DNA of 61,376 nt from a virus. Shown piece by piece: positions 5,576-34,556 of the stretch. The stretch lies in the IMG/VR virus record IMGVR_UViG_3300037483_000245; one strand, written 5' to 3'. Under the pieces are notes generated by a model, which did no database searches, was not told the DNA's origin, and saw only the letters and a program-made list of their open reading frames with translations. Numbering within the stretch: position 1 is the stretch's first letter; every line of letters begins with the position of its first letter. The position numbers and the translations under genes were made by a program.

Positions 5576-5921
5576 ATGGCAGGGCGTAAGGGCCGGGGCA
5601 GGCCGTTCATCCCCCGTCGCCGCAAGGGATCAGGCACCGTTCGCAAGCGCAACAACGAGCAGATCAAGCAGGTGCTGATCTACATGCCGCGCACGATGGC
5701 CACCTGGTACACGAACAAATCCGTGGATCTGCTGCGTCGCGCTGGGCTGCCTGACCGTAATGGCATTGGCAATCGCAACTGGCTGATCATCGAAGCCCTG
5801 AGACTGTTCATGGTGAACTACAAGGCGAACCGGATCAAGCCAGAGCTGGAGACGGCAGACGTTGTTGAGGCGGAAGAGGACATGCAAGAGGATACAGATA
5901 CAACTGAGGAGGAGGCTTTTG

Positions 5922-5947
<26 letters not shown>
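5576..5947 (+). CDS. hypothetical protein with basic N-terminus and acidic C-terminus (123 aa)
   Basis: ORF track. AGGGGG upstream. Confidence 0.6.
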
Positions 5948-7058
<1,111 letters not shown>

Positions 7059-19980: not shown

Positions 19981-20118
19981 ATTCAACGACCACGGTGGGG
20001 CGCGTTGCCCCTTTACACACATCGTTCTTTGCATTGCACCTGGGTTAGCATCATGTTGTGCTGCGATAACACGGCTGATGCGGTGAGGTTTTCATCCGTG
20101 TTGACGTGGTCGTTGAAT
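19981..20118. other. 138-nt element closed by a perfect 14-bp inverted repeat (ATTCAACGACCACG / CGTGGTCGTTGAAT) with internal hairpins
   Basis: Arms at 19981-19994 and 20105-20118. Inner hairpins GGGGC/GCCCC and ACACGG/CCGTGT. Confidence 0.6.
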
Positions 20119-20135
20119 GAAGTACTGGAGGGGAT

Positions 20136-20447
20136 GTGAGAATATCAGAGCTGGCGGATACGTACACAGGGCAGTACAGAGTGCTACTTCAAGACTTGAC
20201 CACCGGTGAGATGCGCTGGTACCAGCCTTCCTACCCTTGGCATGAGGCCTCTGAGTTTTGGTGGACCGAGGGTAACGCTGGGTGCAACTGTAACCGTGCG
20301 CTGTTCTTTACTAAAGCTGCTGGAGAGCAGATCGCTGAGGATATTCAGTACGCAGCTTGCGTAGATGACGCTTTCCCTGATGGTATGCGGTACAAGCTGC
20401 TACGCATAGAGACGCTAGATGGGGGCGTGTTGCTGGAGAAGGAGTAA
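20136..20447 (+). CDS. hypothetical protein (103 aa)
   Basis: ORF track. GTG start after GGAGGGG. Confidence 0.6.
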   Translation: MRISELADTYTGQYRVLLQDLTTGEMRWYQPSYPWHEASEFWWTEGNAGCNCNRALFFTKAAGEQIAEDIQYAACVDDAFPDGMRYKLLRIETLDGGVLLEKE

Positions 20448-20450
20448 CTG

Positions 20451-20630
20451 ATGCGTACATTTGCGGCGCTGGCTTTAGCTTTAGCCATGTTTGTAGTAAC
20501 GTTTATCCTGCTGTTCTACGTTCTCGATCCTGAGTTGTTGGAGCTTCTCCTCTGTGCTGCTGCGGGCTGGGCAGTGGGCGGCTGGTGTGTACGCTCTTCG
20601 GCATGGTTGTTGAAGAGAAAAAAGGAGTAG
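20451..20630 (+). CDS. 59-aa two-TM membrane protein
   Basis: Hand translation MRTFAALALALAMFVVTFILLFYV...AAGWAVGGWCV. Confidence 0.45.
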   Translation: MRTFAALALALAMFVVTFILLFYVLDPELLELLLCAAAGWAVGGWCVRSSAWLLKRKKE

Positions 20631-20633
20631 TCA

Positions 20634-23258
20634 TTGAAAGTCAAAGGTGAAGGCCGCTGCCCTGCATCAGTCATGCTGATCGGTGAAGCGCCTGGAGTCG
20701 AAGAGGACAAGACCGGCCGCCCATTCGTAGGTGCCGCTGGAAAAGAACTCGACCGCTTCCTGCGCCTCGCTGGCCTCGACCGGCGAGAGATGTATCTCAC
20801 CAATCTTCTCAAGCACCGTCCACCTGGCAATCGTGATCCTCTCCCTGAGGAGATCGCTGCTGCGGAGGACGAACTCCTTGACGAGATCGAAGCCGTCAAC
20901 CCGCGCATCATTGGCGCCATTGGCCGCTTCTCTCTCCACTGGTTACTAGGCGACGATAAGCAGGACATCACCAGCGTTCACGGCATCGGCATTCGTGCTG
21001 TCACCACTCCCTGCGGCGAGGAGCGTATTGTTGTCCCCATCATCCACCCTGCTGCTGGTCTCCATTCCCCTGAGCAGATGCAACTCACCTGTTACGACAT
21101 CCAGCAACTAGGGAGGATCAAGCGCGGCGATCTGCAGCAGGTTGTGGGAGAGTCCACGAAAACAAAGACTGCTGGATGGCTCAACTCTACAACTTTGCCC
21201 CTCTCCATCGACACCGAGGGCTGGCCAGGGAAGATGTGGGGGATGAGTTACAGCCAGTGGGAAGGTGGTGGTCGTGTCCTCCGTGACCGCTACGATCTCG
21301 ACGTCTTCTTCGACTGGCTAAATCGTGACCATACCGGCCCCATCATCATGCACAATGCCATGCACGACATCGCGGTCCTCGACGCCGAGGGCTACCATGT
21401 CCCCGCTGAGCGTCTCGTTGACACCATGGTGCTTGCGTACAACCTCCGAGTTGAACCGCAGGGACTCAAACCTCTCGCATTCCGGCATGCTGGCATGCTC
21501 ATGTCCAGTTACTCGGAGATCGTCGCCCCTGCCGAGAGGGAGATCGCTGAGACCTATTTGGACGCCGTCCTCTCCCGCGGCGAGTGCCCCAACTGCCACG
21601 GGTGGCGAGAGATCACCGAACCCAAGCGCAACGGCGGGATCAAATGGGTCAAGTGTCCCGTCTGCAAAGGCGACGGCACCTACTGGCAGACGGGTGGTGA
21701 GCGGCTTGTCTGGCAAGGGAACGTCTCCAAGATCTACACGCCGCACGGGATTGGCCGCCGCGTCTCATCCATCCTCGACGACCTCAAAAAGGATCCCCTT
21801 CTCGACATCCGCAAACGCTGGACGAACATCGACGCCATCGACCGTGCCCACGTCGAACGGGAACTAGGACCCATGCGAGAGCCGGAACTGACAGACGTCG
21901 AGGAGTCCACCGCAGTCTACTACTCCGCTCGTGATGCTGACGCCACCCTTCGTGTCTACAACGCCCTCAATGTTCGTATCAAGGAAGCAGAACTGGAAGA
22001 CGTGGCCGCAATGGACAACGCCATTCTCCCCATCATCGCCCGGATGGAGAAGGTGGGCATCATGATCGACAAGGCCCACTTCGCCGCTCTCCATAACGAT
22101 CTCGTTGAGATGAAGGATGGCGCCCTGTGGAAGTTGAAGAGGCTGATGGGGGAAGATATCAACCCCAACTCGCAGCAGCAGGTGACAAAGCTCCTGCATT
22201 CGATGGGCGTGTCGGCCGGAAGGAAGACCAAGAGCGGCGGTGACTCGACAGACAACAAGACACTGGAGGCGTTGAAGCTGAAGTACTCGGAGCACCGGCA
22301 ACTCATTGAGGCCATCGACCTCTTGCTTGCGTATCGTCAGGCGGACAAGATTGATGGAACGTACGCCGACAAGTTGCCACAAATGGCAGATAGCCGCAAC
22401 AGAATCCACACCCGATTCAAGCTGACAAGAACAGAGACTGGACGGCTGGCAAGTTCTGATCCAAATCTTCAAAACTGCCCAACTCGTACCCCGTTAGGCA
22501 TGAAAATCCGTCACGGCTTCATCGCTTCTCCTGGTAAGATCTTCGGCTCATGGGACTACGACCAGATTGAGATGCGCCTGCTTGCTATCATGTCGGGCGA
22601 CGACAACCTCATCCGTGTCTTCAACGAGAACCTCGACATCCACGCGATGACGGCCAGCCTCGTCTTCCGCGTCCCTTTGGAAGAGGTGACCAAGTCGCAG
22701 CGCACATCGGCAAAGAACATTGGCTTCGGAGTCGTGTACGGCGTGTCGCCCAAGGGACTCCGCGAGCAGATGGACCTGCGTGGGCAGAAGTGGACAGAGG
22801 CTGAATGTGCTGAACTCATTCGCCTGTACCTGGAAGAGGCCTACCCTGGCGTCGGCGTGTACATGCGACGGATGAAGGCGATGGCACGGCGTGAGCTTCT
22901 CGTGCGTGACATGTTCGGCCGCATCCGCTACCTCCCGGCGGCGGGCAGTCAGATCAATCGCATTCGTGAGGAGGCGCTGCGGCAGGCGGGGAACATGCCC
23001 ATCCAGTCCGCCGCGGCAGGAGTGCTGAAACTGGCAATGGCAGAGATCTGGCACGACACCCTTCCCATCCTGCACCAGAGCATGGACATCGAGTGCCTCC
23101 TGAATGTGCACGATGAACTGGTGTTTGAGTTCGACGAGGGGAATGAAGAGTTGGTGGACGCAGCGATCAGTGAGACCATGAGCGGAGTGCTGGGCGAGAC
23201 GGCTGTACCGCTTGGATGCTCTGGGAACTTTGGGCATACGTGGGGAGAATTGAAATGA
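20634..23258 (+). CDS. polA: Fusion protein: UDG-superfamily (family 4/5-like) domain, 3'-5' exonuclease and family A DNA polymerase
   Basis: N-term GEAPGVEEDKTGRPFVGAAG and HPAAGLH (UDG motifs). Pol motifs DYDQIEMRLLA, RTSAKNIGFGVVYG and VHDELVFE. TTG start after AAAAGGAG. Confidence 0.85.
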   Translation: MKVKGEGRCPASVMLIGEAPGVEEDKTGRPFVGAAGKELDRFLRLAGLDRREMYLTNLLKHRPPGNRDPLPEEIAAAEDELLDEIEAVNPRIIGAIGRFSLHWLLGDDKQDITSVHGIGIRAVTTPCGEERIVVPIIHPAAGLHSPEQMQLTCYDIQQLGRIKRGDLQQVVGESTKTKTAGWLNSTTLPLSIDTEGWPGKMWGMSYSQWEGGGRVLRDRYDLDVFFDWLNRDHTGPIIMHNAMHDIAVLDAEGYHVPAERLVDTMVLAYNLRVEPQGLKPLAFRHAGMLMSSYSEIVAPAEREIAETYLDAVLSRGECPNCHGWREITEPKRNGGIKWVKCPVCKGDGTYWQTGGERLVWQGNVSKIYTPHGIGRRVSSILDDLKKDPLLDIRKRWTNIDAIDRAHVERELGPMREPELTDVEESTAVYYSARDADATLRVYNALNVRIKEAELEDVAAMDNAILPIIARMEKVGIMIDKAHFAALHNDLVEMKDGALWKLKRLMGEDINPNSQQQVTKLLHSMGVSAGRKTKSGGDSTDNKTLEALKLKYSEHRQLIEAIDLLLAYRQADKIDGTYADKLPQMADSRNRIHTRFKLTRTETGRLASSDPNLQNCPTRTPLGMKIRHGFIASPGKIFGSWDYDQIEMRLLAIMSGDDNLIRVFNENLDIHAMTASLVFRVPLEEVTKSQRTSAKNIGFGVVYGVSPKGLREQMDLRGQKWTEAECAELIRLYLEEAYPGVGVYMRRMKAMARRELLVRDMFGRIRYLPAAGSQINRIREEALRQAGNMPIQSAAAGVLKLAMAEIWHDTLPILHQSMDIECLLNVHDELVFEFDEGNEELVDAAISETMSGVLGETAVPLGCSGNFGHTWGELK

Positions 23259-23301
23259 CCACCCTTGACTCCGAGTCAACACCTGTGGTAGGATATTCTG
23301 C

Positions 23302-23712
23302 ATGATGAAGAATGGCAAACCGACCGTGGAAGACATTCTGGGAACCGCAACATCCAAGGTGCCGAGTTACGAGGAGTACAAGGAACTCAAGCGGGCCAAG
23401 TTCCGCCGTCTGGCAGATAAGGCCATCGAACTCAAAGCGACCATGGACAGCGCCAAGGCAGAGTACGACAAGACCAGAGAACTGATCGAATCCATTCTCA
23501 TGTCCGCAGATGCCAAGACGATCGCGTATAATGGGTGGCAGATCGGCATCACGGAAGGCCGCAGTGCGCCGAAGTTCGACAAGCAGGCTCTGGTCATGCG
23601 GCTGCTCGCCGAAGGGGTGAGCGACAAGGTCATCAAGGCCGCCGTGGCTGACGCAACGACACCGGGCAAAGAGTGGACCTCAGTGGCGCTCAAGAAACTC
23701 AAGGAGGACTGA
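23302..23712 (+). CDS. hypothetical protein (136 aa)
   Basis: ORF track. Confidence 0.6.
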   Translation: MMKNGKPTVEDILGTATSKVPSYEEYKELKRAKFRRLADKAIELKATMDSAKAEYDKTRELIESILMSADAKTIAYNGWQIGITEGRSAPKFDKQALVMRLLAEGVSDKVIKAAVADATTPGKEWTSVALKKLKED

Positions 23713-24227
23713 TGTTCAGACGTTTGCTGTTGTGTCTACTGCTGCTGTCTCCGCTGGCCCCCTTGTGGGGCCAGTCTCGTCCTGACAATCCAACTCCTTT
23801 CACGCTGCGGGGGTTCATTGTGCCCATCGCCTACCCGATGCCAGAGTTCCGCACGAACGTCCTCCTCACGATCAACTCGGACATCCCCGAGACGGCTGCG
23901 GTCCAGATTACCGCGGACAGCCCCGTGATCGCTGTGGACCTCTATCGTACTCATGACGGCTGGATCGTTGCCAATCGTAAAGCCTGGGTAGACGTGCGGT
24001 ACATCCACCTCTCTCAGGATCCCGTCTGGCTGCGCCGCGCATACGGCTCGACCTCTGTGAGCCTGAACAATCTGCTGCAGGTAGAGGCTGGGGATATCGT
24101 AGTCATTGAGCCTCACCCTCTCCTCATTCAGCAGATCGTCGTATCCGTCATCGACAACAAGTCGAACGACCCGTTCGGATGGTCGTTCGGGGTCAGTACA
24201 ATCCAAGTGAAAAGGAGAAATGAATGA
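23712..24227 (+). CDS. secreted protein with cleavable-type signal peptide (171 aa)
   Basis: Internal ATG after AAGGAGG. MFRRLLLCLLLLSPLAPLWGQ. Confidence 0.6.
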   Translation: MFRRLLLCLLLLSPLAPLWGQSRPDNPTPFTLRGFIVPIAYPMPEFRTNVLLTINSDIPETAAVQITADSPVIAVDLYRTHDGWIVANRKAWVDVRYIHLSQDPVWLRRAYGSTSVSLNNLLQVEAGDIVVIEPHPLLIQQIVVSVIDNKSNDPFGWSFGVSTIQVKRRNE

Positions 24228-24586
24228 AAAGATACGCAGGATGGTTGCTGGCGCTGCTGCTCCTTGCCGGATGCAGTCAGCTTCAGCAGGCGGGACAGAG
24301 GTATGTTCTGACCGAGTTTGAGATTGCCAAGCTGGAGTACACGACGCTGTCGAACGACTACGCGGTGGCCCGGGAGACCATCCGGCAGCAGCGGGTGGCT
24401 GGCGAGATCGACGACAACGGATGGGCCGCATTTGTCACTTTGCAGCAGGAAGTCCAGGACGTGGCCATCGAGTTGATCAACCTGAGAAAGGGCTGGGAAG
24501 CGTCGGGCACGAAACCCCAGCGATGGGACGGCGCCATGTCTGAGCTTCGGTCCAAGATTGAAAGTGTGGAGGCGCTAGCACGATGA
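24224..24586 (+). CDS. lipoprotein (120 aa)
   Basis: MKRYAGWLLALLLLAGC has the lipobox LLAGC. Confidence 0.6.
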   Translation: MKRYAGWLLALLLLAGCSQLQQAGQRYVLTEFEIAKLEYTTLSNDYAVARETIRQQRVAGEIDDNGWAAFVTLQQEVQDVAIELINLRKGWEASGTKPQRWDGAMSELRSKIESVEALAR

Positions 24587-25053
24587 GATGGGAAGACCTT
24601 ACACCTGCCCAGCGTGCTGCGATGATCAGTGCGCTCAAGATGATGCTGACGATGTTCAAGGACTGGTACAGGACGGGGCTGATGCAGTACATTGATGCTG
24701 ATGCCCTGACCCGAGCAGATGAGGTGTTCACGGATGTCCAGTTGGATCCTCTGCCATCCTCGCCCCCGCCACCGGTCGAACCGCCTCCTGTTGAGCCTCC
24801 TCCTGTGACACCTCCGCCAGTCGATCCTCCTGGCGAGCCACCACCGCCAGTGATCGACGATCCGCCCACGAGCAAGTACAACGTCCCCTTCACAGAAGAG
24901 CCGGACTGGTCTGAGTATGAGGACGGGGATCAGGCGTTCGGCGACTGGGCAACCCCCACTGTCTGGATCGTTGTCGAAGCTGGCAAGCGCCCGTTCCTTC
25001 CTACCACGGTCCGCTATTCTCTGGGCATTGTGCGTGCTGGGGTTTTGGTGTAG
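24583..25053 (+). CDS. hypothetical protein with proline-rich PPPV(E/T/D)P repeats (156 aa)
   Basis: ORF track. ATGA overlap. Confidence 0.55.
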   Translation: MRWEDLTPAQRAAMISALKMMLTMFKDWYRTGLMQYIDADALTRADEVFTDVQLDPLPSSPPPPVEPPPVEPPPVTPPPVDPPGEPPPPVIDDPPTSKYNVPFTEEPDWSEYEDGDQAFGDWATPTVWIVVEAGKRPFLPTTVRYSLGIVRAGVLV

Positions 25054-25111
25054 AATAGCCCCGTGTATAGGGCTGCCCGTCCTCCTCGTTCCGGGTAGCC
25101 TCCTCCAGCGG

Positions 25112-25146
25112 AAGGGGTGGCAGAGATGTCACCCCTTCTTTTTTCA
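25112..25146 (+). terminator. Rho-independent terminator
   Basis: 8-bp stem AAGGGGTG/CACCCCTT with a 10-nt loop, followed by CTTTTTTC. Confidence 0.7.
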
Positions 25147-25165
25147 CCTTGTCTAATTTTAGTGC

Positions 25166-25195
25166 TTGACTGCCCGGCAAGTTTTCGAGTACACT
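25166..25195 (+). promoter_or_regulatory. sigma70-like promoter TTGACT-N18-TACACT
   Basis: Hexamers read directly, immediately after the terminator and upstream of the ncRNA/Ro locus. Confidence 0.5.
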
Positions 25196-25226
25196 ATTTG
25201 TGCTGGTTGTTCTTTGACAAGTTGCT

Positions 25227-25349
25227 GGTAACCTTCATGGAGTGGCAGAGGCTCTTCCGTTTCCGCCTTCGCTCAAGCGGTGCATTCCTCCTTCTCGTCA
25301 TTGGAAGACCCCCTTACTACACGCCCTCTGCTGCTTCCTGAAGGTTATC
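25227..25349 (+). ncRNA. Candidate structured RNA: 123-nt rod whose ends form a 25-bp stem (Y-RNA-like architecture)
   Basis: 25227-25251 pairs with 25325-25349 (1 mismatch, 4 G-U). Inner stem TCTTCC/GGAAGA and hairpin CCGC/GCGG. Confidence 0.4.
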
Positions 25350-25351
25350 AA

Positions 25352-25483
25352 CTCGGTGGTGTAGAGATCAGTTACTTCGACTCATAATCGAGTGTCGTTG
25401 GTTCGAGTCCAACATGGGCACAATACGCCCATTAGCTCAGCTGGTTAGAGCGCTAAAATTTCTGGTTTCGCTGATTCCCCGAG
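25352..25483 (+). ncRNA. Circularly permuted tRNA-like RNA (YrlA-type Y RNA candidate)
   Basis: Anticodon-like hairpin with CUCAUAA loop, T arm GTTGG-TTCGAGT-CCAAC, closed acceptor hairpin ATGGGC/GCCCAT, D arm GCTC-AGCTGGTTA-GAGC. The whole is closed by CTCGG(T)GG/CCCCGAG. Confidence 0.5.
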
Positions 25484-25493
25484 TGTTCATTCT

Positions 25494-25564
25494 GGTGTGT
25501 GGCGCAGAGTACGGTTACTTCGCCTATTGGTAGTGTTAATTCCGTTCTCGATGATTCCCGCACC
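25494..25564 (+). ncRNA. Candidate 71-nt structured unit closed by GGTGTG/CGCACC, carrying the second copy of an 18-nt motif
   Basis: End pairing and motif GCAGAGTACGGTTACTTC read directly. No tRNA cloverleaf could be drawn. Confidence 0.25.
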
Positions 25565-25575
25565 TAACATTTACG

Positions 25576-25656
25576 AGCTGGGTAGTGTAGAAAGCGGATA
25601 CTTCTTAATTGGGTTAAGGCAACGTGCCGCTCTCGCTTGTTCTCCCAGCTTTTTTC
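25576..25656 (+). ncRNA. Candidate structured unit ending in a terminator-like stem plus U-run, carrying the third motif copy
   Basis: AGCTGGG (25576-82) pairs with CCCAGCT (25644-50), followed by TTTTTT. Inner hairpins AGCGG/CCGCT and CTTAA/TTAAG. Confidence 0.35.
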
Positions 25657-25673
25657 CTTGGAAGGAGGATCCA

Positions 25674-27071
25674 ATGGCGAAGATCAACAAGAATGCAACG
25701 TCCCCGTTCAAGTCCAAGACTGCTACGACCTACGAAGGTGCGGTCGCCGCAATCTACTCCCCTGAAAAGCAACTGAAGCGCCTCACTGCTGCCCACCTCC
25801 TGTGGGAGGACACGTTCTACGTGGACGGGCAGACGGCTGCAGAACTCGTGCAGGCGGTGGCGCATCAGGTTTCTCCGCAGGCGCTGGCTGAGACGGCCAT
25901 CGAGACGCGGGAGGTGATGAAACTCCGTCACATGCCCCTGCTTCTCGTAAGGGAGTTGTCCCGCCATCCTGCGAGAGGTCTAGCCCCTTCACTGGTGTCC
26001 AACACGCTCGCTCGTGTCATCCAGAGACCTGACGAACTCACTGAATTCCTTGCCATCTACTGGAAGGGCGGCAAGCAGCCGCTGTCGGCGCAGGTGAAGA
26101 AGGGTCTGGCCAAGGCGTTCACGAAGTTCGACGCCTACCAGTTCGCCAAGTACGACCGCGACTCGGACATCAAGCTCCGCGACGTGCTGTTCATGGTTCA
26201 CGCCAAGCCGGGAGTGAAACAGTCGGACCGGCTCTTCAACCAGATCGCCACGCGAACGTTGCCGACCCCGGATACGTGGGAGACGCGCCTGTCGTCCGGC
26301 GGGGAGAAGAAGTCGGATCTCGACAAGCGTGTCCAGTGGACAGAGATGCTGGAAGGCAACAAGCTGGGCGCTATGGCCCTTCTCCGCAACCTGCGAAACA
26401 TGCAGGAGGTGGACGTGGATCGTCACGTCATCAGGAAGGCTCTGCGCAAAGCATCCGCTGAGAAGGTGCTGCCGTACCGCTTCATCGCAGCGGCCCGTTA
26501 CGCTCCGGACTTTGAGCCTGAGCTGGAAGAGCTGATGTTCTCCAGCCTCGCCCAGTTCGACAGGCTGTCGGGCAGAACGGCGATTCTGATCGACGTGTCC
26601 GGGTCGATGGACTCACAGCTGTCAGAGAAGAGTGAGATGACCAGGAAGGATGCAGCGATTGGCCTTGCCATCATGTTGCGGGAGTTGTCGGATGATGTGG
26701 ACATCTACGTCTTTGGCGATACAGCTGCCAAGGTCGCCCCAAGGCGCGGGTTTGCGCTGAGGGATGCGATTGCCCGGTCGAATGTGGGATATTCCACGAA
26801 CGGCTGGGCAGGGCTGGGCCTTGCAAACCGTGCAGGGTATGACAGGATCCTTTGTGTGACGGATGAGCAGTGGCATTCAAGCGCCTATTGGGGAAGTTAT
26901 CGCAACGACAATGTCGCTACGGCTGCCTATCCCATCATCCGCAAGCCTGCCTACATGGTGAACGTCGCGGCGTACCAGCACGGTGTGGCGTACGGGGATC
27001 ACTGGGAAGTGATCTCGGGGTGGAGTGAGGGAGTGGTGAGGTACATTGAAGCGGTGGAGAAGGAGAGTTAG
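25674..27071 (+). CDS. rsr: Ro60 ortholog: TROVE domain plus vWA domain with MIDAS motif
   Basis: Start at the ATG after GGAAGGAGG. The N-terminal region resembles TROVE proteins (LLWEDTFYVDGQ...). vWA motif ILIDVSGSMDS. Confidence 0.75.
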   Translation: MAKINKNATSPFKSKTATTYEGAVAAIYSPEKQLKRLTAAHLLWEDTFYVDGQTAAELVQAVAHQVSPQALAETAIETREVMKLRHMPLLLVRELSRHPARGLAPSLVSNTLARVIQRPDELTEFLAIYWKGGKQPLSAQVKKGLAKAFTKFDAYQFAKYDRDSDIKLRDVLFMVHAKPGVKQSDRLFNQIATRTLPTPDTWETRLSSGGEKKSDLDKRVQWTEMLEGNKLGAMALLRNLRNMQEVDVDRHVIRKALRKASAEKVLPYRFIAAARYAPDFEPELEELMFSSLAQFDRLSGRTAILIDVSGSMDSQLSEKSEMTRKDAAIGLAIMLRELSDDVDIYVFGDTAAKVAPRRGFALRDAIARSNVGYSTNGWAGLGLANRAGYDRILCVTDEQWHSSAYWGSYRNDNVATAAYPIIRKPAYMVNVAAYQHGVAYGDHWEVISGWSEGVVRYIEAVEKES

Positions 27072-27073
27072 CA

Positions 27074-27244
27074 ATGGGATTTGGAGGACTGGGAGCGCCT
27101 GAGATTCTTCTGCTTGCATTCGTTGTCGTCTTGCTCTTCGGCGGTAAGCGGATTGCAGGAATCGGCAAGGGGATGGGGGAGGGGATTGCCAGCTTCAAAC
27201 ACGGGCTGTCGAACCCTTTGACCAAAGACAACAACAAGGAGTAG
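27074..27244 (+). CDS. tatA: TatA/E-family twin-arginine translocase subunit (56 aa)
   Basis: Hand translation MGFGGLGAPEILLLAFVVVLLFGGKRIAGIGKGMGEGIASFKHGLS matches the TatA pattern (TM helix, LLFG-x-K, amphipathic helix with FK). Confidence 0.7.
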   Translation: MGFGGLGAPEILLLAFVVVLLFGGKRIAGIGKGMGEGIASFKHGLSNPLTKDNNKE

Positions 27245-27247
27245 TGC

Positions 27248-27469
27248 ATGCTGTCAAGGCGAGGCTTCCTCAAATTCACCGGCCTTGTCGCCAGTGGCTT
27301 GGTAGTAGGGATCAATCCGTTCAAGAGTCAGCCGACAGTGTTCGACACATCAAGAAGGTTCAAGATGAGTAAGGACACTGGCCTGCTTGAGGGCTTTCCC
27401 ATCGGCATTCTTCAGACTAGCGGATTCTGGAAACACAGCATACTGCTGAGCAACACCGATCAGGTATAA
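27248..27469 (+). CDS. small protein with a twin-arginine signal peptide (73 aa)
   Basis: MLSRRGFLKFTGLVASGLVVG matches the S-R-R-x-F-L-K consensus plus an h-region. Confidence 0.55.
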   Translation: MLSRRGFLKFTGLVASGLVVGINPFKSQPTVFDTSRRFKMSKDTGLLEGFPIGILQTSGFWKHSILLSNTDQV

Positions 27470-27488
27470 TAGTCCCGGGGGTTATTTT

Positions 27489-27662
27489 ATGAAGAAGAAA
27501 TGGTACAAGTCCAAAACCGTCTGGCTCAACGTGATTACTGCGATTGGCGTGTTCACGCTCAACCAGTTCGGCTACGAGATCACTGAGTATCAGACGACGC
27601 TCCTTCTCTCGCTGATCAACCTGCTTCTGCGGTCGATCACCAAGGAAGGACTGACGTCGTAG
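27489..27662 (+). CDS. 57-aa small membrane protein (holin-like size and topology)
   Basis: Hand translation MKKKWYKSKTVWLNVITAIGVFTLNQFGYEITEYQTTLLLSLINLLLRSI. Confidence 0.45.
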   Translation: MKKKWYKSKTVWLNVITAIGVFTLNQFGYEITEYQTTLLLSLINLLLRSITKEGLTS

Positions 27663-27753
27663 AGTTTGGTGGTGATAAGAGGCTACGACCTCTTCTGACC
27701 AGCCTGATCACCTGGGGCATACGGCACTAACCCTCAGATAGCCACCAATTTAC

Positions 27754-27827
27754 AGCCCTGTGGGGTAACGGCAGCCTGTGTGGCTCTGGACCACACGATC
27801 TTGGTTCAAATCCAGGCGGGGCTTCCA
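27754..27827 (+). tRNA. tRNA-Gln (anticodon CTG), CCA encoded
   Basis: Manual cloverleaf: acceptor AGCCCTG/CGGGGCT, anticodon arm TGTGG-CTCTGGA-CCACA, T arm CTTGG-TTCAAAT-CCAGG, then T-CCA. Confidence 0.75.
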
Positions 27828-27851
27828 AATTCAGGTTCTGAGTAGTCTCGT

Positions 27852-27924
27852 GTTGGTGCTAGTTTAACCGGTAGAATAGCTGACTGTGACTCAGCAGGAC
27901 AGGGTTCGAGTCCCGGCGCCAACC
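27852..27924 (+). tRNA. tRNA-His (anticodon GTG)
   Basis: Acceptor GTTGGTG/CGCCAAC, anticodon arm GCTGA-CTGTGAC-TCAGC, T loop TTCGAGT. Exact ends are uncertain by 1 nt. Confidence 0.7.
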
Positions 27925-27942
27925 CAAACATTCGGAGGAGTG

Positions 27943-28164
27943 ATGCTTGAGATCCCAGAAGACGGCGTGATCAGTTGCCCGGCATGCAGCGGGGAGATGT
28001 TACTCGTCGAGTACCACGGCATGCATGAGGACCACTATGACGGCTGGTCTGAGGTCATGTGCCCAAAGGATTTGCACGGCTGTGGTATGCGCATCGGCCG
28101 CTGGTCTGAGAAGGTGTTGCAGTCAGGTGAGTCAGAGCCGCGGTGGGGAGTTCGTCATGCCTGA
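27943..28164 (+). CDS. zinc-ribbon-like small protein (73 aa)
   Basis: ATG after GGAGGAG. The listed 27886 start lies inside the tRNA-His gene. CPACSG...CPKDLHGC. Confidence 0.55.
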   Translation: MLEIPEDGVISCPACSGEMLLVEYHGMHEDHYDGWSEVMCPKDLHGCGMRIGRWSEKVLQSGESEPRWGVRHA

Positions 28165-28417
28165 TGTCACTTCAGAGCATCTCAGCTGGTTGCTTCTGAC
28201 CTCCATGCGCTACGCCATTGGCAGGCGGACGTATGCACCGTCCTACACGGCGGAGATCATCAGGAAGCACTGGGGAGACATTAGCGCCGAGAGTAGGGCG
28301 CTGTTGCTAAGAGATCTTGATGGTGAGATTAAGGCGCGTGGGAGCTACCTTGGAGACCCTTGCGATGTAGCAACGTGGACAGCGTTGTATCAGTGGATGC
28401 TACAGAATTTGTCGTAG
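28157..28417 (+). CDS. hypothetical protein (86 aa) with SMRYAIGRRTY motif
   Basis: ATG after GGGGAG, inside ORF 28025..28417. Confidence 0.55.
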   Translation: MPDVTSEHLSWLLLTSMRYAIGRRTYAPSYTAEIIRKHWGDISAESRALLLRDLDGEIKARGSYLGDPCDVATWTALYQWMLQNLS

Positions 28418-28422
28418 TCTAT

Positions 28423-28510
28423 CTGCCCGTAGCCCAGTGGTAGGGTGCCTGTTTTGGGAATTCTCTTTCGCTCAAAGAGCGGCTCGACTAGAATCCATCC
28501 GGGCAGACCA
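28423..28510 (+). ncRNA. 88-nt tRNA-like element: 7-bp acceptor stem, U8-A9, canonical D arm and A-CCA 3' end, but no recognisable anticodon or T arm
   Basis: CTGCCCG/CGGGCAG, TA, GCCC-AGTGGTA-GGGT, internal hairpin CTCTTT-CGCTC-AAAGAG, ends ...CGGGCAG-A-CCA. Confidence 0.35.
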
Positions 28511-28513
28511 ATC

Positions 28514-28587
28514 GCCGCTGAATGCAAAGGGTGAGCACCGAGGCCTTCAACCTCGTGTACAGGGTTCGAGTCCCTGCAGCGGCACCA
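28514..28587 (+). tRNA. tRNA, probably Glu (TTC), with a non-canonical anticodon loop CCTTCAA. CCA encoded
   Basis: Acceptor GCCGCTG/CAGCGGC, anticodon stem CGAGG/CCTCG, T arm CAGGG-TTCGAGT-CCCTG, then A-CCA. Confidence 0.65.
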
Positions 28588-28589
28588 AG

Positions 28590-28621
28590 TTATACGCACT
28601 TTCGTGTAGAACTGCGTATAA
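28590..28621. terminator. Hairpin at the convergence point of the two arms (TTATACGC / GCGTATAA, 16-nt loop)
   Basis: 8-bp perfect stem. No clear U-run on either side. Confidence 0.3.
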
Positions 28622-28638
28622 CCCGGGCACCGGATACC

Positions 28639-28692
28639 TTACCGGCCTCCGCCTTTGGGGCCAGTCTTCCGCTTGATGACTTTTCTAGGCAT
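28639..28692 (-). CDS. possible 17-aa Lys/Gly-rich peptide (MPRKVIKRKTGPKGGGR)
   Basis: Strong SD AAAGGAGGTGAATGGT before the ATG. Very short. Confidence 0.3.
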   Translation of the reverse strand: MPRKVIKRKTGPKGGGR

Positions 28693-28707
28693 ACCATTCA
28701 CCTCCTT

Positions 28708-29238
28708 TCAGATTTTCCTTGCTGCCCTGTCCAACCAGCCATAGATGAAATCCAGCTTCTGCAGATTCCCCATCGCCTGCCTGGCGTATCTCTCAGCCTG
28801 ACAAGCCGACGCCGCCCGCAGCCACCAGTACTCACTGCAGAAGTCCGGCGGCTGCGACCTGCCATCAGCGAGCATGTTGAGAGCATGCACCGTGTTGTTG
28901 CCGAACCATCCATCCACGTCCACCCAGCCGGTCTTGAGAACGTTCAGAGCCTGTTGAGCGATCCTGACGCCGTTGTTGGGACCGAAGTGGACACAGAGGT
29001 CCAGCGTCTTCGTAGCAATTGGCTGACTGACCTCGCCGAACCTGGGGTGCCAGAACTCGCCCTTGTAGATCTTGAGTGCATCGTCTCTCGTGACGTCTCT
29101 GGCACTGTCAAACCCATGGCGCTTGGCAAGAGCGTTCGTGATGCCGTAGTTGGTCTTCCCGCCGGGGTCGCTGGGGTGGTTGGAGTAGCCGCCTTCGTTC
29201 TCCAGCACCCATTCGATTGCTGCCTTGAATTCTGACAT
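28708..29238 (-). CDS. Endolysin, glycoside hydrolase family 108 with PG_binding_3-like C-terminus
   Basis: N-terminal VLENEGGYSNHPSDPGGKTNYGIT is the GH108 signature. Confidence 0.85.
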   Translation of the reverse strand: MSEFKAAIEWVLENEGGYSNHPSDPGGKTNYGITNALAKRHGFDSARDVTRDDALKIYKGEFWHPRFGEVSQPIATKTLDLCVHFGPNNGVRIAQQALNVLKTGWVDVDGWFGNNTVHALNMLADGRSQPPDFCSEYWWLRAASACQAERYARQAMGNLQKLDFIYGWLDRAARKI

Positions 29239-29246
29239 ACCCTCTC

Positions 29247-32200
29247 CTACTTGAGTCTCAGTAAAACTGCTCTGGTCTGCTGTGGATCGAGGATCTTGGA
29301 CTCCATCCCGCCCTTAGGCAGTACCTGCAACTCCAGCCCGTCCATCGTAAGCGCTGCACCGATCACCCGGTCTCCGTTGGGTAGTGTCATGCCGTTCTTG
29401 AGCGAGGCAGGGGTGCCAGGTCGCCCTTTGGCTTTCTGCTCTGTATTGTACTTCTTCACAGTGCGCTGGAACAACTCGTCGCCAGAAGTGGCGGGGGTGT
29501 CTGCGGCCTTCTCTGCAGGCGGTTTCTTTGCGGCAGGCTTCTCTGTCAACTTGGGAGGAGCTTCCGCTTCCTTCGCCTTGAGCCGCGGCGGAGGTGTCAC
29601 TTTGGCTTCCTTTGCAGAGGCCTTAGGAGGAGCTTCCACCTTCTTAGGGGTAACGGTGGCCGGTGCTTCCGCTTTGGGCGCTGGAGGGGCTTCTGGAGCC
29701 ACTGCTGCAGCCTTTGGAGGCGGTGCTGCCTTCTTCCCTTTACCCTTCTTCTTGGACACCTTGGGCACTTCTGGCGCAGGGTTCAGTTTTGGCGGAGGAG
29801 TCACTTTGGGAGCCTGCATTACGCCTCCACTTCTTCTGTCCGCGGCTCTCTTTCTAGTAGGGGTGGCGGCGCTACGAGCCTCGACGACCTCTCGTGGGAC
29901 TTCGACTGTTGGGTCGTTGATGTCTACGTAGCGAATGTCTTCGTACTTGGGCGTCTTTTGCCCCCGCTGAACGGTGACGCCACCAACTTGAGCATCTTCC
30001 ACAGGAAGGACCTCTACAACACCAAGGTCGTCATAAGTGCGTCCGAAAGATCCAATACGGCCGTCTGGGAACTCCACTGTCCCTGCACGCTTACCGCCTG
30101 CCAAAGGGGCATCTGCCAGCTTTGGAGGGGGTACACGAATACCCCCTGCTTGTGGAGGGGGGGCGGTGCCTTCGACCGGTGCAGCGGCGCTACTTGCAGT
30201 AGGTGGAGGCGTAGCACCTCCTGCTGCGGCCCTGGCAGCGGCCCCTGTTGCCCCGGCTCCGGAAGGAAGCATTGAAGGCTCTATCCATTTGAGATCGTCC
30301 GGGGCCAATTGCCGCAGAAGGTTGGCAAGCCTCAACTGAGTTGCTGAGCCTCCTGCAATCTTCTTTGCCATTCCAAGCATGGTCGTACCAGCGAGGTGCT
30401 TACCTATTTTCGTTGGGTCAGCACTTCCTGGCGTAATTGATGACTGACTGAGGAGCGTAGACTTTTTACCTTCCAGATACTGCGGTTTCAGTCCTTCCAA
30501 TGCCCCCTGAACATCGGACATTTTATGGTTGAGATTCACCAACTCTGGATCAGTGACCTGATCGTCGAATGTTTTGCGAAGAGCTGTGCGGGCAGTTTTG
30601 AGGTTCTCCTCTAATGCTGCTGTTGTCTTGTTGGGGGTCTTGTTGAATGCACTCTTGTTGATCTCTTTGATCTGCTTGTCGATCTTCCTGATCAGCTCAT
30701 TTAACTCCACAGTAGACAGGTCGGTCCCAGTCGAACTGGCCTTGTCGATGTCATCCAAAACGCTCTGCAGACTGCTCTGGACTTTGCGCCGCATCCCTTT
30801 GGTGACACCGCCCGCTTTTCCAAGTGCGGAGTCTTGTGAGATTGGGCCTTTGATAGCTTTCTCTACAGTTTGCCGCAACTCAGAGATCGCAAACCTTGTA
30901 GTATCTGCTGCGGCCCTGCTCTGGAAAATGTCGTTCAGTTCGCCCAAACGCATGTTCAGGCCGTTGATGATCCCTTCCAGGTTCTGCCCGGCAATAACAC
31001 CCCTACCAACATCCAGCACGTTTACACCCATGCGGGGTGGCCCCACTGCTTCGCCTGGGCGCACTTCCATTGTCCGGGCCAGATGCTCGTCCGGTACATT
31101 CCCAAAAGCGCCTTGGGCCAAGCTACCGGCGTACTCATGGCCAAGGAATTTTCTTACTGGCCTTGTTGCCTTGACTGCACCTTTTGCGGCAGCACCCGGA
31201 GCCATCGCCAGCCCGCCAGAGGCGAGCACTCCAGCAGTGACCTGCGAGGGATCTTCAGCCTCACTGACGCTCTGTGAGATGAACGGCGCAGAATACGCCA
31301 AGGGCTGTACGTAGCCGCTTTGGAGAGCCTTACCTACAGCACTTGAAGCTGGGCGCTCCATGGCGCGTCCTACAGCCTTTGTCGCCGCGGTGACAGGCCG
31401 AGTTACCGTTCTACCAACGTTACCGGCAGCCTCTTCTGCGGTAGCCGCCATTCGTGAAAACAGAGGTTTGGAAGCCAGCCTGGATGCGCGGGCCGCTGTG
31501 GTTGAGGCTCTTGAGGTTGTACCAACGGCCCCAGCGGCCCCACCGGTGGCAAGACTGAGAAGTGCCTCCACGGCCGGAAGTGCTACATTAGTGTAACGCA
31601 GCCCAGCAGACAGGTAGTCACCTTCTTCACGAGACTTGCCAGCCTCTTTCCACTCCTCCTTCATCGGGTCGATCAGCATACCCTTGGCGGCGCTCCTACC
31701 GGTCTGGAGGATGTCTTTCCCACCTTCCAGCAGCCCGGATAGACCCTTATGTTTCTGGAAATCAGTGGACTCGATCCCTAGCTGCGGAGCGTTTGCACGA
31801 GACACAGAAAGTTCTCGTACAGCCTCTTCGTCACCCTGCTCAGCGAGCGCCTTGACCTCGGCATATCTGCGAGTCGCAGCACTCTTAAGCGTCTCCCCTT
31901 CCTGAACTTCAAGAGGAGGAAGAGCGAGCATCTGGCGCAGGGCACTGTTACGTGCGGCGCTGGTCTCTTCGTCACTGCCCCGCATACCAAGAAGGGTGCC
32001 AATACCCTTTCCCCACTCCGAAAAGGACTGCCCAATATCTTCCGAGGAACCGAACGTGGCAGCCAGTTTTGATGGAGGAGCTGCCGGGACGATCTGTTGC
32101 GCCCCCGTCTCTGGATCGGTCGCAACGGTCTGGCTGCCAATATCTCTTTCCACTCGCTGCCGTGCAGCCTCCCTGACAGGGTTGTTTGGGTCTGGCAGTG

Positions 32201-32336
32201 GCAGAGTCCCAAACTCGCTCTCGTACTGAGCGTGCAACTGCTCAATCTGGGGCCATACATCCTTGAACTGCTCTCTGTGCTGCCCTGCCGACCGGAAGAG
32301 GACACGGAGGAATTCAGGATTCAGTTGCTTTGCCAT
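29247..32336 (-). CDS. very large virion-internal/ejection-type protein (1029 aa) with Pro/Lys/Ala-rich C-terminal region
   Basis: ORF track. Sits next to the SLT protein. Low-complexity APPK repeats. Function inferred from context only. Confidence 0.6.
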   Translation of the reverse strand: MAKQLNPEFLRVLFRSAGQHREQFKDVWPQIEQLHAQYESEFGTLPLPDPNNPVREAARQRVERDIGSQTVATDPETGAQQIVPAAPPSKLAATFGSSEDIGQSFSEWGKGIGTLLGMRGSDEETSAARNSALRQMLALPPLEVQEGETLKSAATRRYAEVKALAEQGDEEAVRELSVSRANAPQLGIESTDFQKHKGLSGLLEGGKDILQTGRSAAKGMLIDPMKEEWKEAGKSREEGDYLSAGLRYTNVALPAVEALLSLATGGAAGAVGTTSRASTTAARASRLASKPLFSRMAATAEEAAGNVGRTVTRPVTAATKAVGRAMERPASSAVGKALQSGYVQPLAYSAPFISQSVSEAEDPSQVTAGVLASGGLAMAPGAAAKGAVKATRPVRKFLGHEYAGSLAQGAFGNVPDEHLARTMEVRPGEAVGPPRMGVNVLDVGRGVIAGQNLEGIINGLNMRLGELNDIFQSRAAADTTRFAISELRQTVEKAIKGPISQDSALGKAGGVTKGMRRKVQSSLQSVLDDIDKASSTGTDLSTVELNELIRKIDKQIKEINKSAFNKTPNKTTAALEENLKTARTALRKTFDDQVTDPELVNLNHKMSDVQGALEGLKPQYLEGKKSTLLSQSSITPGSADPTKIGKHLAGTTMLGMAKKIAGGSATQLRLANLLRQLAPDDLKWIEPSMLPSGAGATGAAARAAAGGATPPPTASSAAAPVEGTAPPPQAGGIRVPPPKLADAPLAGGKRAGTVEFPDGRIGSFGRTYDDLGVVEVLPVEDAQVGGVTVQRGQKTPKYEDIRYVDINDPTVEVPREVVEARSAATPTRKRAADRRSGGVMQAPKVTPPPKLNPAPEVPKVSKKKGKGKKAAPPPKAAAVAPEAPPAPKAEAPATVTPKKVEAPPKASAKEAKVTPPPRLKAKEAEAPPKLTEKPAAKKPPAEKAADTPATSGDELFQRTVKKYNTEQKAKGRPGTPASLKNGMTLPNGDRVIGAALTMDGLELQVLPKGGMESKILDPQQTRAVLLRLK

Positions 32337-34556
32337 CTACTGGCCATCCTCAATGAAGACTGGGATACCACTGCGCTGCGCAAGCTGTTCAATGTAGTTC
32401 GTGCCAAACGTTTTGGCGATTGGGGCCAAGGAGGCCACGTAATCCTGTGTCTCCTTGAATGGAGGCACTTTGTTCCCGTACTTGCGCACATTGCCCATCC
32501 CAGAGTTGTAAGCAGCAAGTGCGAGTTCCGCGTCACCGCCAAACTGGTCCAGCAGTTGCTTCAGATACTTGGCCCCGGCTTCGATATTGATTGCTGGGTC
32601 GCGCAGTTGCTCTGGCGTATACCCAAGATCCCTTCCAGTGTCGGGCATGATCTGCATGAGGCCAATGGCTCCTGCTGGTGATACTGCATCCGGCCGGGTT
32701 GCTGACTCCTTCTGCATCACCGCAGACAAGAGTGCCGGGTGGATGTTGTATTTCTGCGCCGCCTGCTGAATGAGGCCATCATATTGCGTCGGCGGAGGGG
32801 TGGCAGCGGGAGCAGTAGTTGGAGTCTGCTGCGGCTGAGTCTGCTGCCCCACTCCGACCTGCGAGAGTGCAGAGCGCGTGTCTTCCGGGGACAAGGTGGG
32901 AAGCCAGGAGGCATTTCCTGCGGCAGGAGCTGTATCTGGCGCTGGTTCCTGTGGCACAATCAACTCATTGATAGCGCTGCTGTTTCCCATGGACCATTGC
33001 CGCATTGCGTTTCGTACCTGAGAAGCTGCTGCGTTTTTAGTGTTTGCGCCGAGGAACTCCGCAAGCACTTCCGGGTCCGCTGGACTGGCGATGATGTCTT
33101 CCACCCTGTACGGGTGAGTGACCGTGAACTCATTGAGGCCCTTAGCCCGCTCTGTGTAGTCCATGCTGACGGACTGCCAGTTGGACATGTTGACTTGGTT
33201 GAGAATGTCCATCTCTCTCATAAGAGACTTCATCTGCGTGTCAGACATGGCTTTACCGGTCTTGTTGATAAGATCGTCTTTGATGGCAAGAGTGTCACCA
33301 AACAACTGGTTCGTCTTGGTAAGTTGAACTTCACCCTCACGAACAACAGAACCTGGGTCGAGAGCCTTGATGTAACTGTAGAGAAGTGTGATCTTGGCGC
33401 TTAGATTTGGCCTTCCAGCAGCCTTATCCTCTTCGTACTGCTGATATGCTCTCTTTGCCACCGCATACGCAGTCAAAGACGTCCTGACTTCCTTAGTCTC
33501 CGCGGTGTAGTTCTTACGCAACTGAGTGACTTCTTGGCTGATCTTTCCGATATTCTCCGACTCATTGCGAGCCTTCCACCAAGTATCAAGGTACTCCTGC
33601 TGCTCCTGCGGATCTGTAGAGGTGGGGTTGAGGGGCGCTTTCCCAGCACTTGCTCTTCGAAGGTTGGCGATCTGAAGCAGGCCAGTGATGTCATTCTCTT
33701 TGGACCCAAGATCCCCACCACCAATACCGCTGGCTTCGCGAAGACTCTTGATTTCACCGTTATCGTATACAGCTACTAGTGATCCGTCCTTGAGTTCCTT
33801 GACTTCCTTGAATGCGGCTTCTTTGGGGAACATCTGCTTGATGAGTGATTCTGCCTGCTTGCTGGCGAGAAGCTGTTGCACACCCATCTCAGTAGGCGTC
33901 ATCAGCCCTTTTGTCATCCCAGCCCCTGCTGGCATTTCTGGCCTCTGTGGGATCAGTTGCTGAAGACCTTCCAACTGCTGCACGTTCCCCTGCTGCTGCT
34001 GCAGCTGATCCGTCGCCATGTTCGATGCACTACTGAGCATCTGGGAGGTGATGTAGTCCATCCCCCCAGGCGGAAGTCCGGTAGTTGGTGCTGGCGGCCC
34101 CTGCTCAGCGTTCTGTTTGAATTGCTCTGCCCCTGCAACTCCGGGCAGTCCCTGCAGGGTGGTTGCCAGCAACTCTGACCCAGGCAAGCTCTTGTTCTCC
34201 TGCTGCAATTTCTGGGAGACTGCCTGATTTGTCTGGCCCCACGTCTGGTCATACTGCTGCTGCGCCATACCGCCAAGCTGCTGCTGAACGTTAGGCCTCT
34301 GCGTCATCTGCAAGATACCGCCCAGCACATTCTGATAGTCTTTCTGCTTGATCGCCTTGCCGCCGCTGTAGACGACCTGGAAGTACTTCTCTGTTGCCGC
34401 GTTCCTCGCCTCGTCAGGAGTGGCGGGGTTGTTCGCCAGTGACAGCAGCAGGCTCTTGAAATCTTCCTGCTGCCCCTTCGACTCCTGCTCCTTCCTCTGA
34501 CGAGCCTTGTCCAGCCCACGAGCAAACCCGAGCGCAAGCCCTCCGCTGAATCCCAT
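32337..34556 (-). CDS. internal virion protein with C-terminal lytic transglycosylase (SLT) domain
   Basis: MQKESATRPDAVSPAGAIGLMQIMP...AAYNSGMGNV matches the SLT catalytic region. Confidence 0.8.
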   Translation of the reverse strand: MGFSGGLALGFARGLDKARQRKEQESKGQQEDFKSLLLSLANNPATPDEARNAATEKYFQVVYSGGKAIKQKDYQNVLGGILQMTQRPNVQQQLGGMAQQQYDQTWGQTNQAVSQKLQQENKSLPGSELLATTLQGLPGVAGAEQFKQNAEQGPPAPTTGLPPGGMDYITSQMLSSASNMATDQLQQQQGNVQQLEGLQQLIPQRPEMPAGAGMTKGLMTPTEMGVQQLLASKQAESLIKQMFPKEAAFKEVKELKDGSLVAVYDNGEIKSLREASGIGGGDLGSKENDITGLLQIANLRRASAGKAPLNPTSTDPQEQQEYLDTWWKARNESENIGKISQEVTQLRKNYTAETKEVRTSLTAYAVAKRAYQQYEEDKAAGRPNLSAKITLLYSYIKALDPGSVVREGEVQLTKTNQLFGDTLAIKDDLINKTGKAMSDTQMKSLMREMDILNQVNMSNWQSVSMDYTERAKGLNEFTVTHPYRVEDIIASPADPEVLAEFLGANTKNAAASQVRNAMRQWSMGNSSAINELIVPQEPAPDTAPAAGNASWLPTLSPEDTRSALSQVGVGQQTQPQQTPTTAPAATPPPTQYDGLIQQAAQKYNIHPALLSAVMQKESATRPDAVSPAGAIGLMQIMPDTGRDLGYTPEQLRDPAINIEAGAKYLKQLLDQFGGDAELALAAYNSGMGNVRKYGNKVPPFKETQDYVASLAPIAKTFGTNYIEQLAQRSGIPVFIEDGQ

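Follow-up and report, generated by a model that had tools for sequence, protein, structure and literature searches.

Why would a bacteriophage carry its own TatA, the membrane-weakening subunit of the bacterial machine that exports folded proteins, and set it directly before a small protein with a twin-arginine (RR) signal? The question is raised by positions 27074–27469 of the IMG/VR virus record IMGVR_UViG_3300037483_000245, a stretch of 61,376 nt that was analysed over its whole length and is referred to here as the window. The window is an almost complete podovirus-like phage genome (~61 kb; the longest contig with these genes has 61,387 bp), identified as such by genes for a DNA polymerase, a portal, a major head protein, tail fibres/spikes, an internal virion protein with a transglycosylase domain and a GH108 endolysin. 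A sequence-only reading had described, directly downstream of a Ro gene, a 56-aa open reading frame (ORF) as TatA and a 73-aa ORF with an RR signal, followed by a 57-aa membrane protein. The coordinates and translations of the first two ORFs were re-derived identically, the Ro stop (27071) lies 2 nt before the TatA ATG, and the 57-aa membrane protein is present where it had been claimed. The reading preferred here, to which we give a probability of roughly 0.55, is that the phage TatA would plug into the twin-arginine translocation (Tat) receptor of the host, TatBC, and so secure export of the phage's own RR protein.

TatA and the adjoining twin-arginine protein

The 56-aa ORF is assigned to the TatA/E family by its profile matches. 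Pfam PF02416 (TatA_B_E, mttA/Hcf106) scores 44.5 bits against a gathering score of 21, with residues 6–48 on profile positions 1–43 of 53, and a phmmer search of the PDB matched solely TatA, Tha4 and TatAd chains (E 1.4e-7 to 1.7e-3), so that the fit to TatA/TatE first noticed in the letters is borne out by the family model. Sixteen TatA/TatE models of NCBIfam match the ORF, TIGR01411 (tatAE) being the best, and no TatB model does. In PHROGs the matching family is phrog_29532, annotated as 'unknown function'.

The predicted architecture is that of a short transmembrane (TM) helix, a hinge and an amphipathic helix (Table 1). A short hydrophobic helix of ~12 residues is a hallmark of TatA (PMC9527704). 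Alignment to E. coli TatA (pdb 2mn6) over phage residues 2–51 places E10 on Q8, F22-G23 on F20-G21, G35 on G33 and F41-K42 on F39-K40, and the start codon agrees with the N-termini of cellular homologues. The tail has only two acidic residues, D52 and E56. AlphaFold2 (AF2) models one helix over residues 8–45 with moderate confidence and does not resolve the hinge. The closest proteins are cellular TatAs (from Bacteroidota, Acidobacteriota, Gemmatimonadota and similar groups) with no more than 59% identity, which suggests that the capture was not recent.

The 73-aa ORF carries, as judged from its translation, a canonical twin-arginine signal, and the description of this signal as near ideal has stood up well. 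Its N-terminus reads MLSRRGFLK, in which S3-R4-R5-G6-F7-L8-K9 fits all seven positions of the S/T-R-R-x-F-L-K consensus, and the curated profile TIGR01409 scores 23.5 bits against a cutoff of 16.7. The h-region is 13 residues long, rich in Gly, Ser and Thr, and has a best 13-residue Kyte–Doolittle mean of 2.05; the basic residue of the c-region is K26, which lies just past the signal span given in Table 1. A strict RR pattern, in which [ST]RRx[FL]L close to the N-terminus precedes an uncharged stretch, was matched a single time in a six-frame control of ~180 kb made up of the window and 19 loci lacking TatA, and this match is the 73-aa ORF itself. The A-x-A site of signal peptidase I is absent from the protein; its only plausible –3/–1 site is V19-V20-G21, and the signal may either be cut after this G21 or persist as an anchor at the N-terminus. 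No TM segment was found in the ~50 residues after the signal. The AF2 model consists of the signal helix (residues 4–21) alone, with a predicted local distance difference test score (pLDDT) below 55 elsewhere and no predicted fold. Searches of PHROG and PADLOC with the protein gave no matches.

Both genes belong to a tight string at the end of the plus-strand block, in which the Ro60/TROVE gene, TatA and the 73-aa ORF are separated by gaps of 2 and 3 nt; after a further 19 nt follows the ORF for the 57-aa protein and then tRNA-Gln and tRNA-His. Each of the two genes is preceded by an AAGGAG Shine–Dalgarno sequence (Table 1), and the position of the second of these within the end of the TatA gene suggests translational coupling. 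A strong terminator-like hairpin and a promoter-like site upstream of Ro suggest that the string is one transcription unit; the region 25110–25195 is the probable 5′ boundary, by consensus scan, of a unit comprising YrlA (a Y RNA-like match described below), Ro, TatA, the RR protein, the 57-aa protein and the tRNAs. Coding potential was scored as log-odds per codon with a model trained on the long genes of the phage, in which confident genes reach 0.33 [standard deviation (sd) 0.13]. For all three small ORFs the called frame is the best-scoring one, with 0.37 for TatA, 0.16 for the RR protein and 0.57 for the 57-aa protein against an off-frame maximum of 0.013.

No TatC-like ORF or protein with several hydrophobic segments was found in the window, nor was a second TatA/B-type ORF by a crude scan for hydrophobic segments. 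The phage would thus have to rely on the TatC or TatBC of its host.

The pairing in other viruses and at cellular tatA loci

IMG/VR was scanned with two alignment-derived and two hand-made degenerate DNA patterns, each hit being confirmed by a TatA hidden Markov model. The scans gave a small number of viral TatA lineages, 13 with the window included, and in six to seven of these an RR-signal ORF overlaps TatA, abuts it or lies within 1 kb of it (Table 1). The RR calls outside the window are pattern-based; the window ORF alone passes the curated profile and that of L006 falls narrowly short. In L008 and L042 the pair has genes for a portal, scaffold, major head protein or terminase no more than a few kilobases away. 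TatC is found near a viral TatA only in L039, where a tatA-tatC arrangement looks cellular, and in L145. The viral loci range from 35 to 68% GC and their hinges are of the types FGGK, FGAKKLP and FGPKKLP; both the spread of base composition and the differing hinges argue for independent acquisitions, and from these sequences the arrangement of TatA with an RR protein seems to have arisen repeatedly in viruses. No likeness was found among the cargos of different viral TatA loci beyond the signal. In one further viral contig (L007, IMGVR_UViG_3300020192_000025) a 330-aa protein with a good Tat signal (MSISRRNLLLAGGAAFLSSAMFREALA) and the papain-like motifs GDCCGQAG and NSWGENW is encoded at 417–1409 on the minus strand, 4.6 kb from the TatA of that contig, and may be a viral Tat-exported peptidase.

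As a cellular control, the 80 loci with the most similar TatAs were inspected. TatC lies within 2.5 kb of tatA in 53 of the 80, and a real RR-signal neighbour is present in three to five; the contrast with the viral loci gives Fisher p-values of 1e-4 to 7e-4. Matches to a relaxed RR pattern near cellular tatA were mostly the N-terminus of TatC or internal starts, and were discounted on inspection. The earlier suggestion that a translocase subunit is paired here with its own cargo is therefore strengthened by a recurrence that is almost always without TatC and is rare at cellular tatA.

The rarity of TatA on phages was also noted correctly. Searching 50,697 GenBank phage records by tblastn with this TatA, another viral TatA and E. 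coli TatA gave no genuine TatA; the matches in Salmonella records and in 'Acinetobacter phage MD-2021a' are bacterial contigs mislabelled as phage. Nothing on a phage-encoded TatA was found in the literature searched. A viral copy of this core component of a cellular translocase is thus absent from both the literature and the GenBank phage records searched. The TatA family, Tat signals and the substrate-adjacent Tat paralogues of Bacillus are well known, whereas that literature made no mention of a viral TatA that lacks TatC, is coupled to an RR protein of its own and recurs in different viral lineages.

The same data bear on whether the genes do anything together. They could be passengers: tatA, perhaps with the 5′ stub of a neighbouring Tat-substrate gene, would then be a host-derived moron without a phage-specific coupled function, and the 73-aa ORF might go untranslated or be what is left of a truncated gene. 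Co-capture is possible, since a few cellular genomes (L069, L087) have an RR-signal gene directly by tatA, and the RR protein has no credible homologue and a codon score below average. Nor are there close relatives of the phage to show that the pair is retained: by megablast, window positions 20000–35000 matched GenBank phages only over 120 nt of Ro, and searches of IMG/VR and JGI metagenomes with Ro and the DNA polymerase gave only relatives of 38–46% identity, none with TatA. However, the distance of this TatA from cellular TatAs together with its phage-like codon usage means that any capture is old, and the perfect AAGGAG sites and spacers of 2–3 nt indicate that expression signals are maintained. 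Repeated accidental co-capture would also hardly explain a recurrence over the whole range of base composition with conservation in L047/L144 and L042/L046, viral cargos that are unrelated to one another, and the fact that TatC, the usual cellular neighbour, is almost never taken. A passenger origin without coupled function is for these reasons unlikely.

Table 1. Features of the window around TatA and of the candidate lysis cluster, with the putative RR partners of TatA at other viral loci (L numbers denote contigs). Shine–Dalgarno sequences were read from the sequence.
Feature	Position	Strand	Remarks
Terminator-like hairpin	25110–25139	+	13 pairs and T-run; consensus scan
Sigma-70-like promoter match	25166–25195	+	consensus scan
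Ro60/TROVE-vWA RNA-binding protein	25674–27071	+	phrog_850 E 1.5e-49; Pfam TROVE E 1.6e-11
Shine–Dalgarno AAGGAG for TatA	27060–27065	+	8 nt 5′ of ATG, inside last Ro codons
TatA/TatE-family protein, 56 aa	27074–27244	+	MGFGGLGAPEILLLAFVVVLLFGGKRIAGIGKGMGEGIASFKHGLSNPLTKDNNKE
TatA TM helix I11–F22 (predicted)	27104–27139	+	12 hydrophobic residues, after short periplasmic N-terminus
TatA amphipathic helix ~K25–L45 (predicted)	27146–27208	+	after F22-G23-G24 hinge; short tail follows
Shine–Dalgarno AAGGAG for RR protein	27236–27241	+	6 nt 5′ of ATG, inside TatA gene end
RR-signal protein, 73 aa, putative Tat cargo	27248–27469	+	MLSRRGFLKFTGLVASGLVVGINPFKSQ...; ATG 3 nt past TatA stop
Tat signal peptide (predicted)	27248–27313	+	n-region M1–K9, h-region F10–I22
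Small membrane protein, 57 aa	27489–27662	+	closes three-gene string; weak holin-profile matches
Lipoprotein, 96 aa	49075–49365	-	MKLLLAALLTVLFADGC...
Rz-like i-spanin, 104 aa	49362–49676	-	phrog_7686 E 7.8e-6
TM protein (candidate holin), 57 aa	49660–49833	-	candidate lysis cluster
RR ORF in L008/L009, 169 aa			MVELTRRFFLGG…; 8-nt overlap with TatA stop
RR ORF in L047/L144, 198/161 aa			MNRR(K/R)FLQLA…; 4-nt overlap; pair kept in both relatives
RR peptide in L042/L046, 61–69 aa			…YTRRQFFGI…; conserved Cys-containing core; abuts TatA
RR ORFs in L043, 60 aa and 127 aa			MNRR(R/H)FL…; just upstream of TatA
RR ORF in L045			weaker, MLRRGG…; after TatA
RR ORF in L006, 218 aa			MDRRKFL…; TIGR01409 15.8 bits; 742 nt downstream of TatA, same strand

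A proposed export route and its rivals

The elements common to the viral loci, namely TatA, an RR signal and no TatC, suggest as the simplest mechanism that the phage supplies the subunit required in the largest excess while its RR protein uses the host TatBC. The expression of tatA is 25 times that of tatB and 50 times that of tatC; the paralogue TatE, which stands alone, can take the place of TatA, and heterologous TatA-type proteins can function with a foreign TatC (PMC6708511). For the phage, we infer the following route. TatA and the RR protein would be expressed from the operon of Ro, TatA, cargo and 57-aa protein, and TatA would insert spontaneously into the host inner membrane with its N-terminus outside, its short TM helix leading into an amphipathic one. 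The 73-aa protein would dock by its RR signal on the host TatBC receptor, for which the phage supplies neither TatB nor TatC. Phage TatA would then supplement or replace the host TatA pool, which must polymerize at TatBC in large excess, thinning the membrane. The C-terminal part of the RR protein would in this way reach the periplasmic face, either released or anchored by its uncleaved signal, and is presumed to act there. The phage would benefit in that one of its proteins is sure to be exported by Tat in the course of infection, when the supply of host TatA may run short or be shut off. A role of the cargo in superinfection exclusion, envelope modification or the regulation of lysis is a guess.

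Several results weigh against this export reading. For TatA itself, TIGR01411 gives 46.1 bits, under its cutoff of 53.9, and the acidic motif that follows the amphipathic helix in E. coli TatA (D45-D46-E47) is absent, the aligned residues being N47-P48-L49. Stripping the post-helix acidic charges from E. coli TatA lowers transport but does not abolish it, and the missing motif is for this reason not a strict criterion (PMC9527704). For the cargo, Pfam TAT_signal (PF10518) gives 18.3 bits, below its cutoff of 22.7, and a foldless client of ~50 residues is odd for a pathway specialized in folded proteins. Its codon score, best of the six frames, yet lies ~1.2 sd under the gene mean. A word-indexed search of 5.8 billion proteins returned only the query, and phmmer, run exhaustively over 1.84 billion representatives, found nothing besides the query but two repetitive junk proteins. 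All five copies of the locus found in metagenomes agree in every base (100% identity), so that they offer no polymorphism in which selection on the cargo could show. Among the viral lineages, 6 of the 13 have no adjacent RR ORF, and several of the IMG/VR contigs are without a hallmark-gene match or were unchecked for such genes. The cellular control behind the Fisher comparison is taxonomically narrow, being skewed to Bacteroidota and Acidobacteriota.

The small size of the RR protein bears on a different reading, that the genes form a lysis or permeabilization module. Excess TatA and a signal-only substrate would here drive TatA polymerization at the host TatBC and so cause a controlled membrane lesion or a leak of the proton-motive force (PMF). 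The pair would then be a lysis timer or a holin-like device, in which the 57-aa protein and the GH108 endolysin may take part. It is TatA that weakens the membrane, which it does when a substrate binds, and holins of the BhlA/TpeE type share its topology (PMC9527704). The cargo is nearly signal-only with no predicted fold, and a weak second SRR..TGL..GI segment (p ~0.02) has been seen in it; as 46 of 2000 shuffles scored at least as high, the case for such a duplicated signal is weak and nothing is made to rest on it. Tiny RR peptides also accompany TatA in L042/L046 and L043, whereas the RR partners of 127–218 aa in other viral lineages fit ordinary cargo better than a trigger.

The surrounding genes point both ways on lysis. 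The gene that follows the pair encodes the 57-aa protein, whose holin matches are all sub-threshold: Pfam Phage_holin_1 (PF04531) gives 16.2 bits against a cutoff of 22 (E 0.015), and the holin families phrog_297 and phrog_34682 give E ~0.008. A GH108 endolysin without a signal is encoded at 28708–29238 on the minus strand, ~1–1.2 kb from the module across a convergent junction, with no holin beside it. The module itself, however, lies with Ro and the tRNAs in an early/middle plus-strand block away from the late genes, and the lysis option is weakened by a separate cluster at 49075–49833 (–) of a 57-aa TM protein, an Rz-like i-spanin and a lipoprotein. That TatA and the 57-aa protein are the only holin of the phage was considered and is weakened by the same candidate holin, spanin and lipoprotein. 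On balance a lysis module is rather unlikely. Its most specific form, in which a signal-only mini-protein would switch on TatA polymerization at the host TatBC as a Tat-based holin, timer or PMF valve, is decidedly improbable; that form would hold, with the same low probability, that phages of many hosts have independently captured tatA, and almost never tatC, beside RR-signal genes.

The lack of TatB and TatC in the phage, the absence of the acidic motif from its TatA and a cargo with neither a foldable mature domain nor an A-x-A site, as expected of a decoy that occupies the translocon, would all suit interference with the host Tat pathway as well. The TatA variant and the decoy RR peptide would then occupy or poison TatBC and block host substrates such as cell-wall amidases or redox enzymes. 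The critical positions of the phage TatA are all conserved, unlike those of dominant-negative mutants, and the TatAs of other viruses adjoin sizeable RR proteins that resemble real cargo; moreover, this reading does not account for TatA, since a decoy peptide would do on its own. We consider interference to be quite improbable. Both it and the passenger origin fit the conserved residues, the expression signals and the recurrence less well than the export model does.

The proposed export of a cargo with the help of a separately encoded TatA has counterparts in bacteria. E. coli TatE and B. subtilis TatAc are, like the phage TatA, small proteins of TM helix, hinge and amphipathic helix that are encoded apart from tatC; they join a translocase whose receptor is encoded elsewhere and can replace or assist TatA (PMC6708511). 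Unlike these, the phage TatA is virus-borne, apparently coupled translationally to a Tat-signal ORF, devoid of the acidic motif and below the TIGR01411 cutoff. The B. subtilis modules TatAd-TatCd/PhoD and TatAy-TatCy/EfeB likewise set a translocase component beside, and co-express it with, its own RR cargo, TatAdCd being co-expressed with the single cargo PhoD (PMC6708511). These modules include their own TatC, whereas the phage and nearly all of the viral loci carry TatA only, and in place of an enzyme of the PhoD type the phage cargo is a 73-aa protein without a credible homologue.

Among phage proteins, signal-anchor-release (SAR) and Sec-signal endolysins and the T4 antiholin RI similarly have an N-terminal signal for recognition by a host translocase (PMC8385771, PMC9239132). 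Their route is Sec, and no translocase subunit comes with the phage, whereas the protein described here has a signal of the twin-arginine type and its phage encodes TatA. Holins of the BhlA/TpeE type have the size of TatA, with a short TM and an amphipathic helix, and a shared principle of membrane weakening has been proposed, but they have no sequence relationship to TatA (PMC9527704), whereas the phage protein is a TatA homologue by profile.

Should the module work as proposed, phages would not only exploit host export but strengthen the Tat pathway, by supplying the subunit that limits its rate and weakens the membrane, so as to pass their own proteins through the inner membrane. The cargos, which are unrelated and in several cases only 60–73 aa long, would then be a new class of phage periplasmic or inner-membrane effectors. 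Minimal TatAs (~45–56 aa) and mini-substrates that need a foreign TatBC would serve to probe TatA recruitment, specificity and membrane weakening. If instead the lysis or trigger reading were true, it would provide a direct link between the mechanisms of Tat and of holins.

Neighbouring genes and further observations

The only homologue of the 57-aa protein that closes the string is a protein (P0012) with 60% identity and 16 synonymous codon changes. P0012 (L054 131–720, a Logan SRR20959693 contig of 1127 bp) has an ORF with an RRRFL-type signal (MRRRFLVAAVLCLALLGG..., 137 aa) directly 3′, followed by two small TM proteins. An RR protein thus adjoins the 57-aa family in both of its known occurrences, the window and L054. 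The candidate lysis cluster of the minus strand lies far from the endolysin and implies a Gram-negative host.

The replication and accessory genes of the phage are on the plus strand up to ~28.4 kb and the structural genes on the minus strand from ~28.7 kb. The family-A DNA polymerase gene is at 20634–23258 (+), and a gene resembling a DNA polymerase exonuclease subunit (phrog_403, E 8e-55) lies ~25 kb from it at 48102–48851 (–), within the structural block. Just 5′ of the Ro unit, at 23712–24586 (+), are two exported-looking proteins without functional assignment: a 171-aa ORF with an RR pair followed by a very hydrophobic signal of Sec-type look (MFRRLLLCLLLLSPLAPLWG), and a 120-aa lipoprotein (MKRYAGWLLALLLLAGC). 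The stretch 6346–7020 (+) is an imperfect (CTG)n array of 675 bp (~225 units). In the frame of the ORF at 5862–7058 it encodes a 225-residue low-complexity tail of Ala, Asp and Tyr (AADAAAAYAADA...) on an N-terminal domain of ~160 aa, and in another frame it gives rise to a spurious poly-Leu/Met ORF (6295–7050).

A functional tie between TatA and Ro was considered and rejected, as ~20 other Ro-bearing viral or metagenome contigs (L013–L034) are without TatA. The 120-nt patch within Ro (26090–26210, +) shares 84% identity with genes annotated as 'hypothetical protein' in Xanthomonas/Xylella phages (Usme, Tenjo, Olaya and others). Just 5′ of Ro, at 25365–25480 (+), there is a full-length match to the Y RNA-like YrlA (Rfam RF02553; 37.7 bits, E 6.7e-6, below the gathering score of 69), which with the Ro gene would make a phage module of Ro and Y RNA; a doubtful 39-aa ORF (25414–25533) is called over this match. 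A third tRNA-like element (28514–28584, +; Rfam 45.9 bits, missed by ARAGORN) is placed at the convergent junction of the plus and minus blocks, just before the endolysin stop, and could be either a true tRNA or a tRNA-like partner of Ro.

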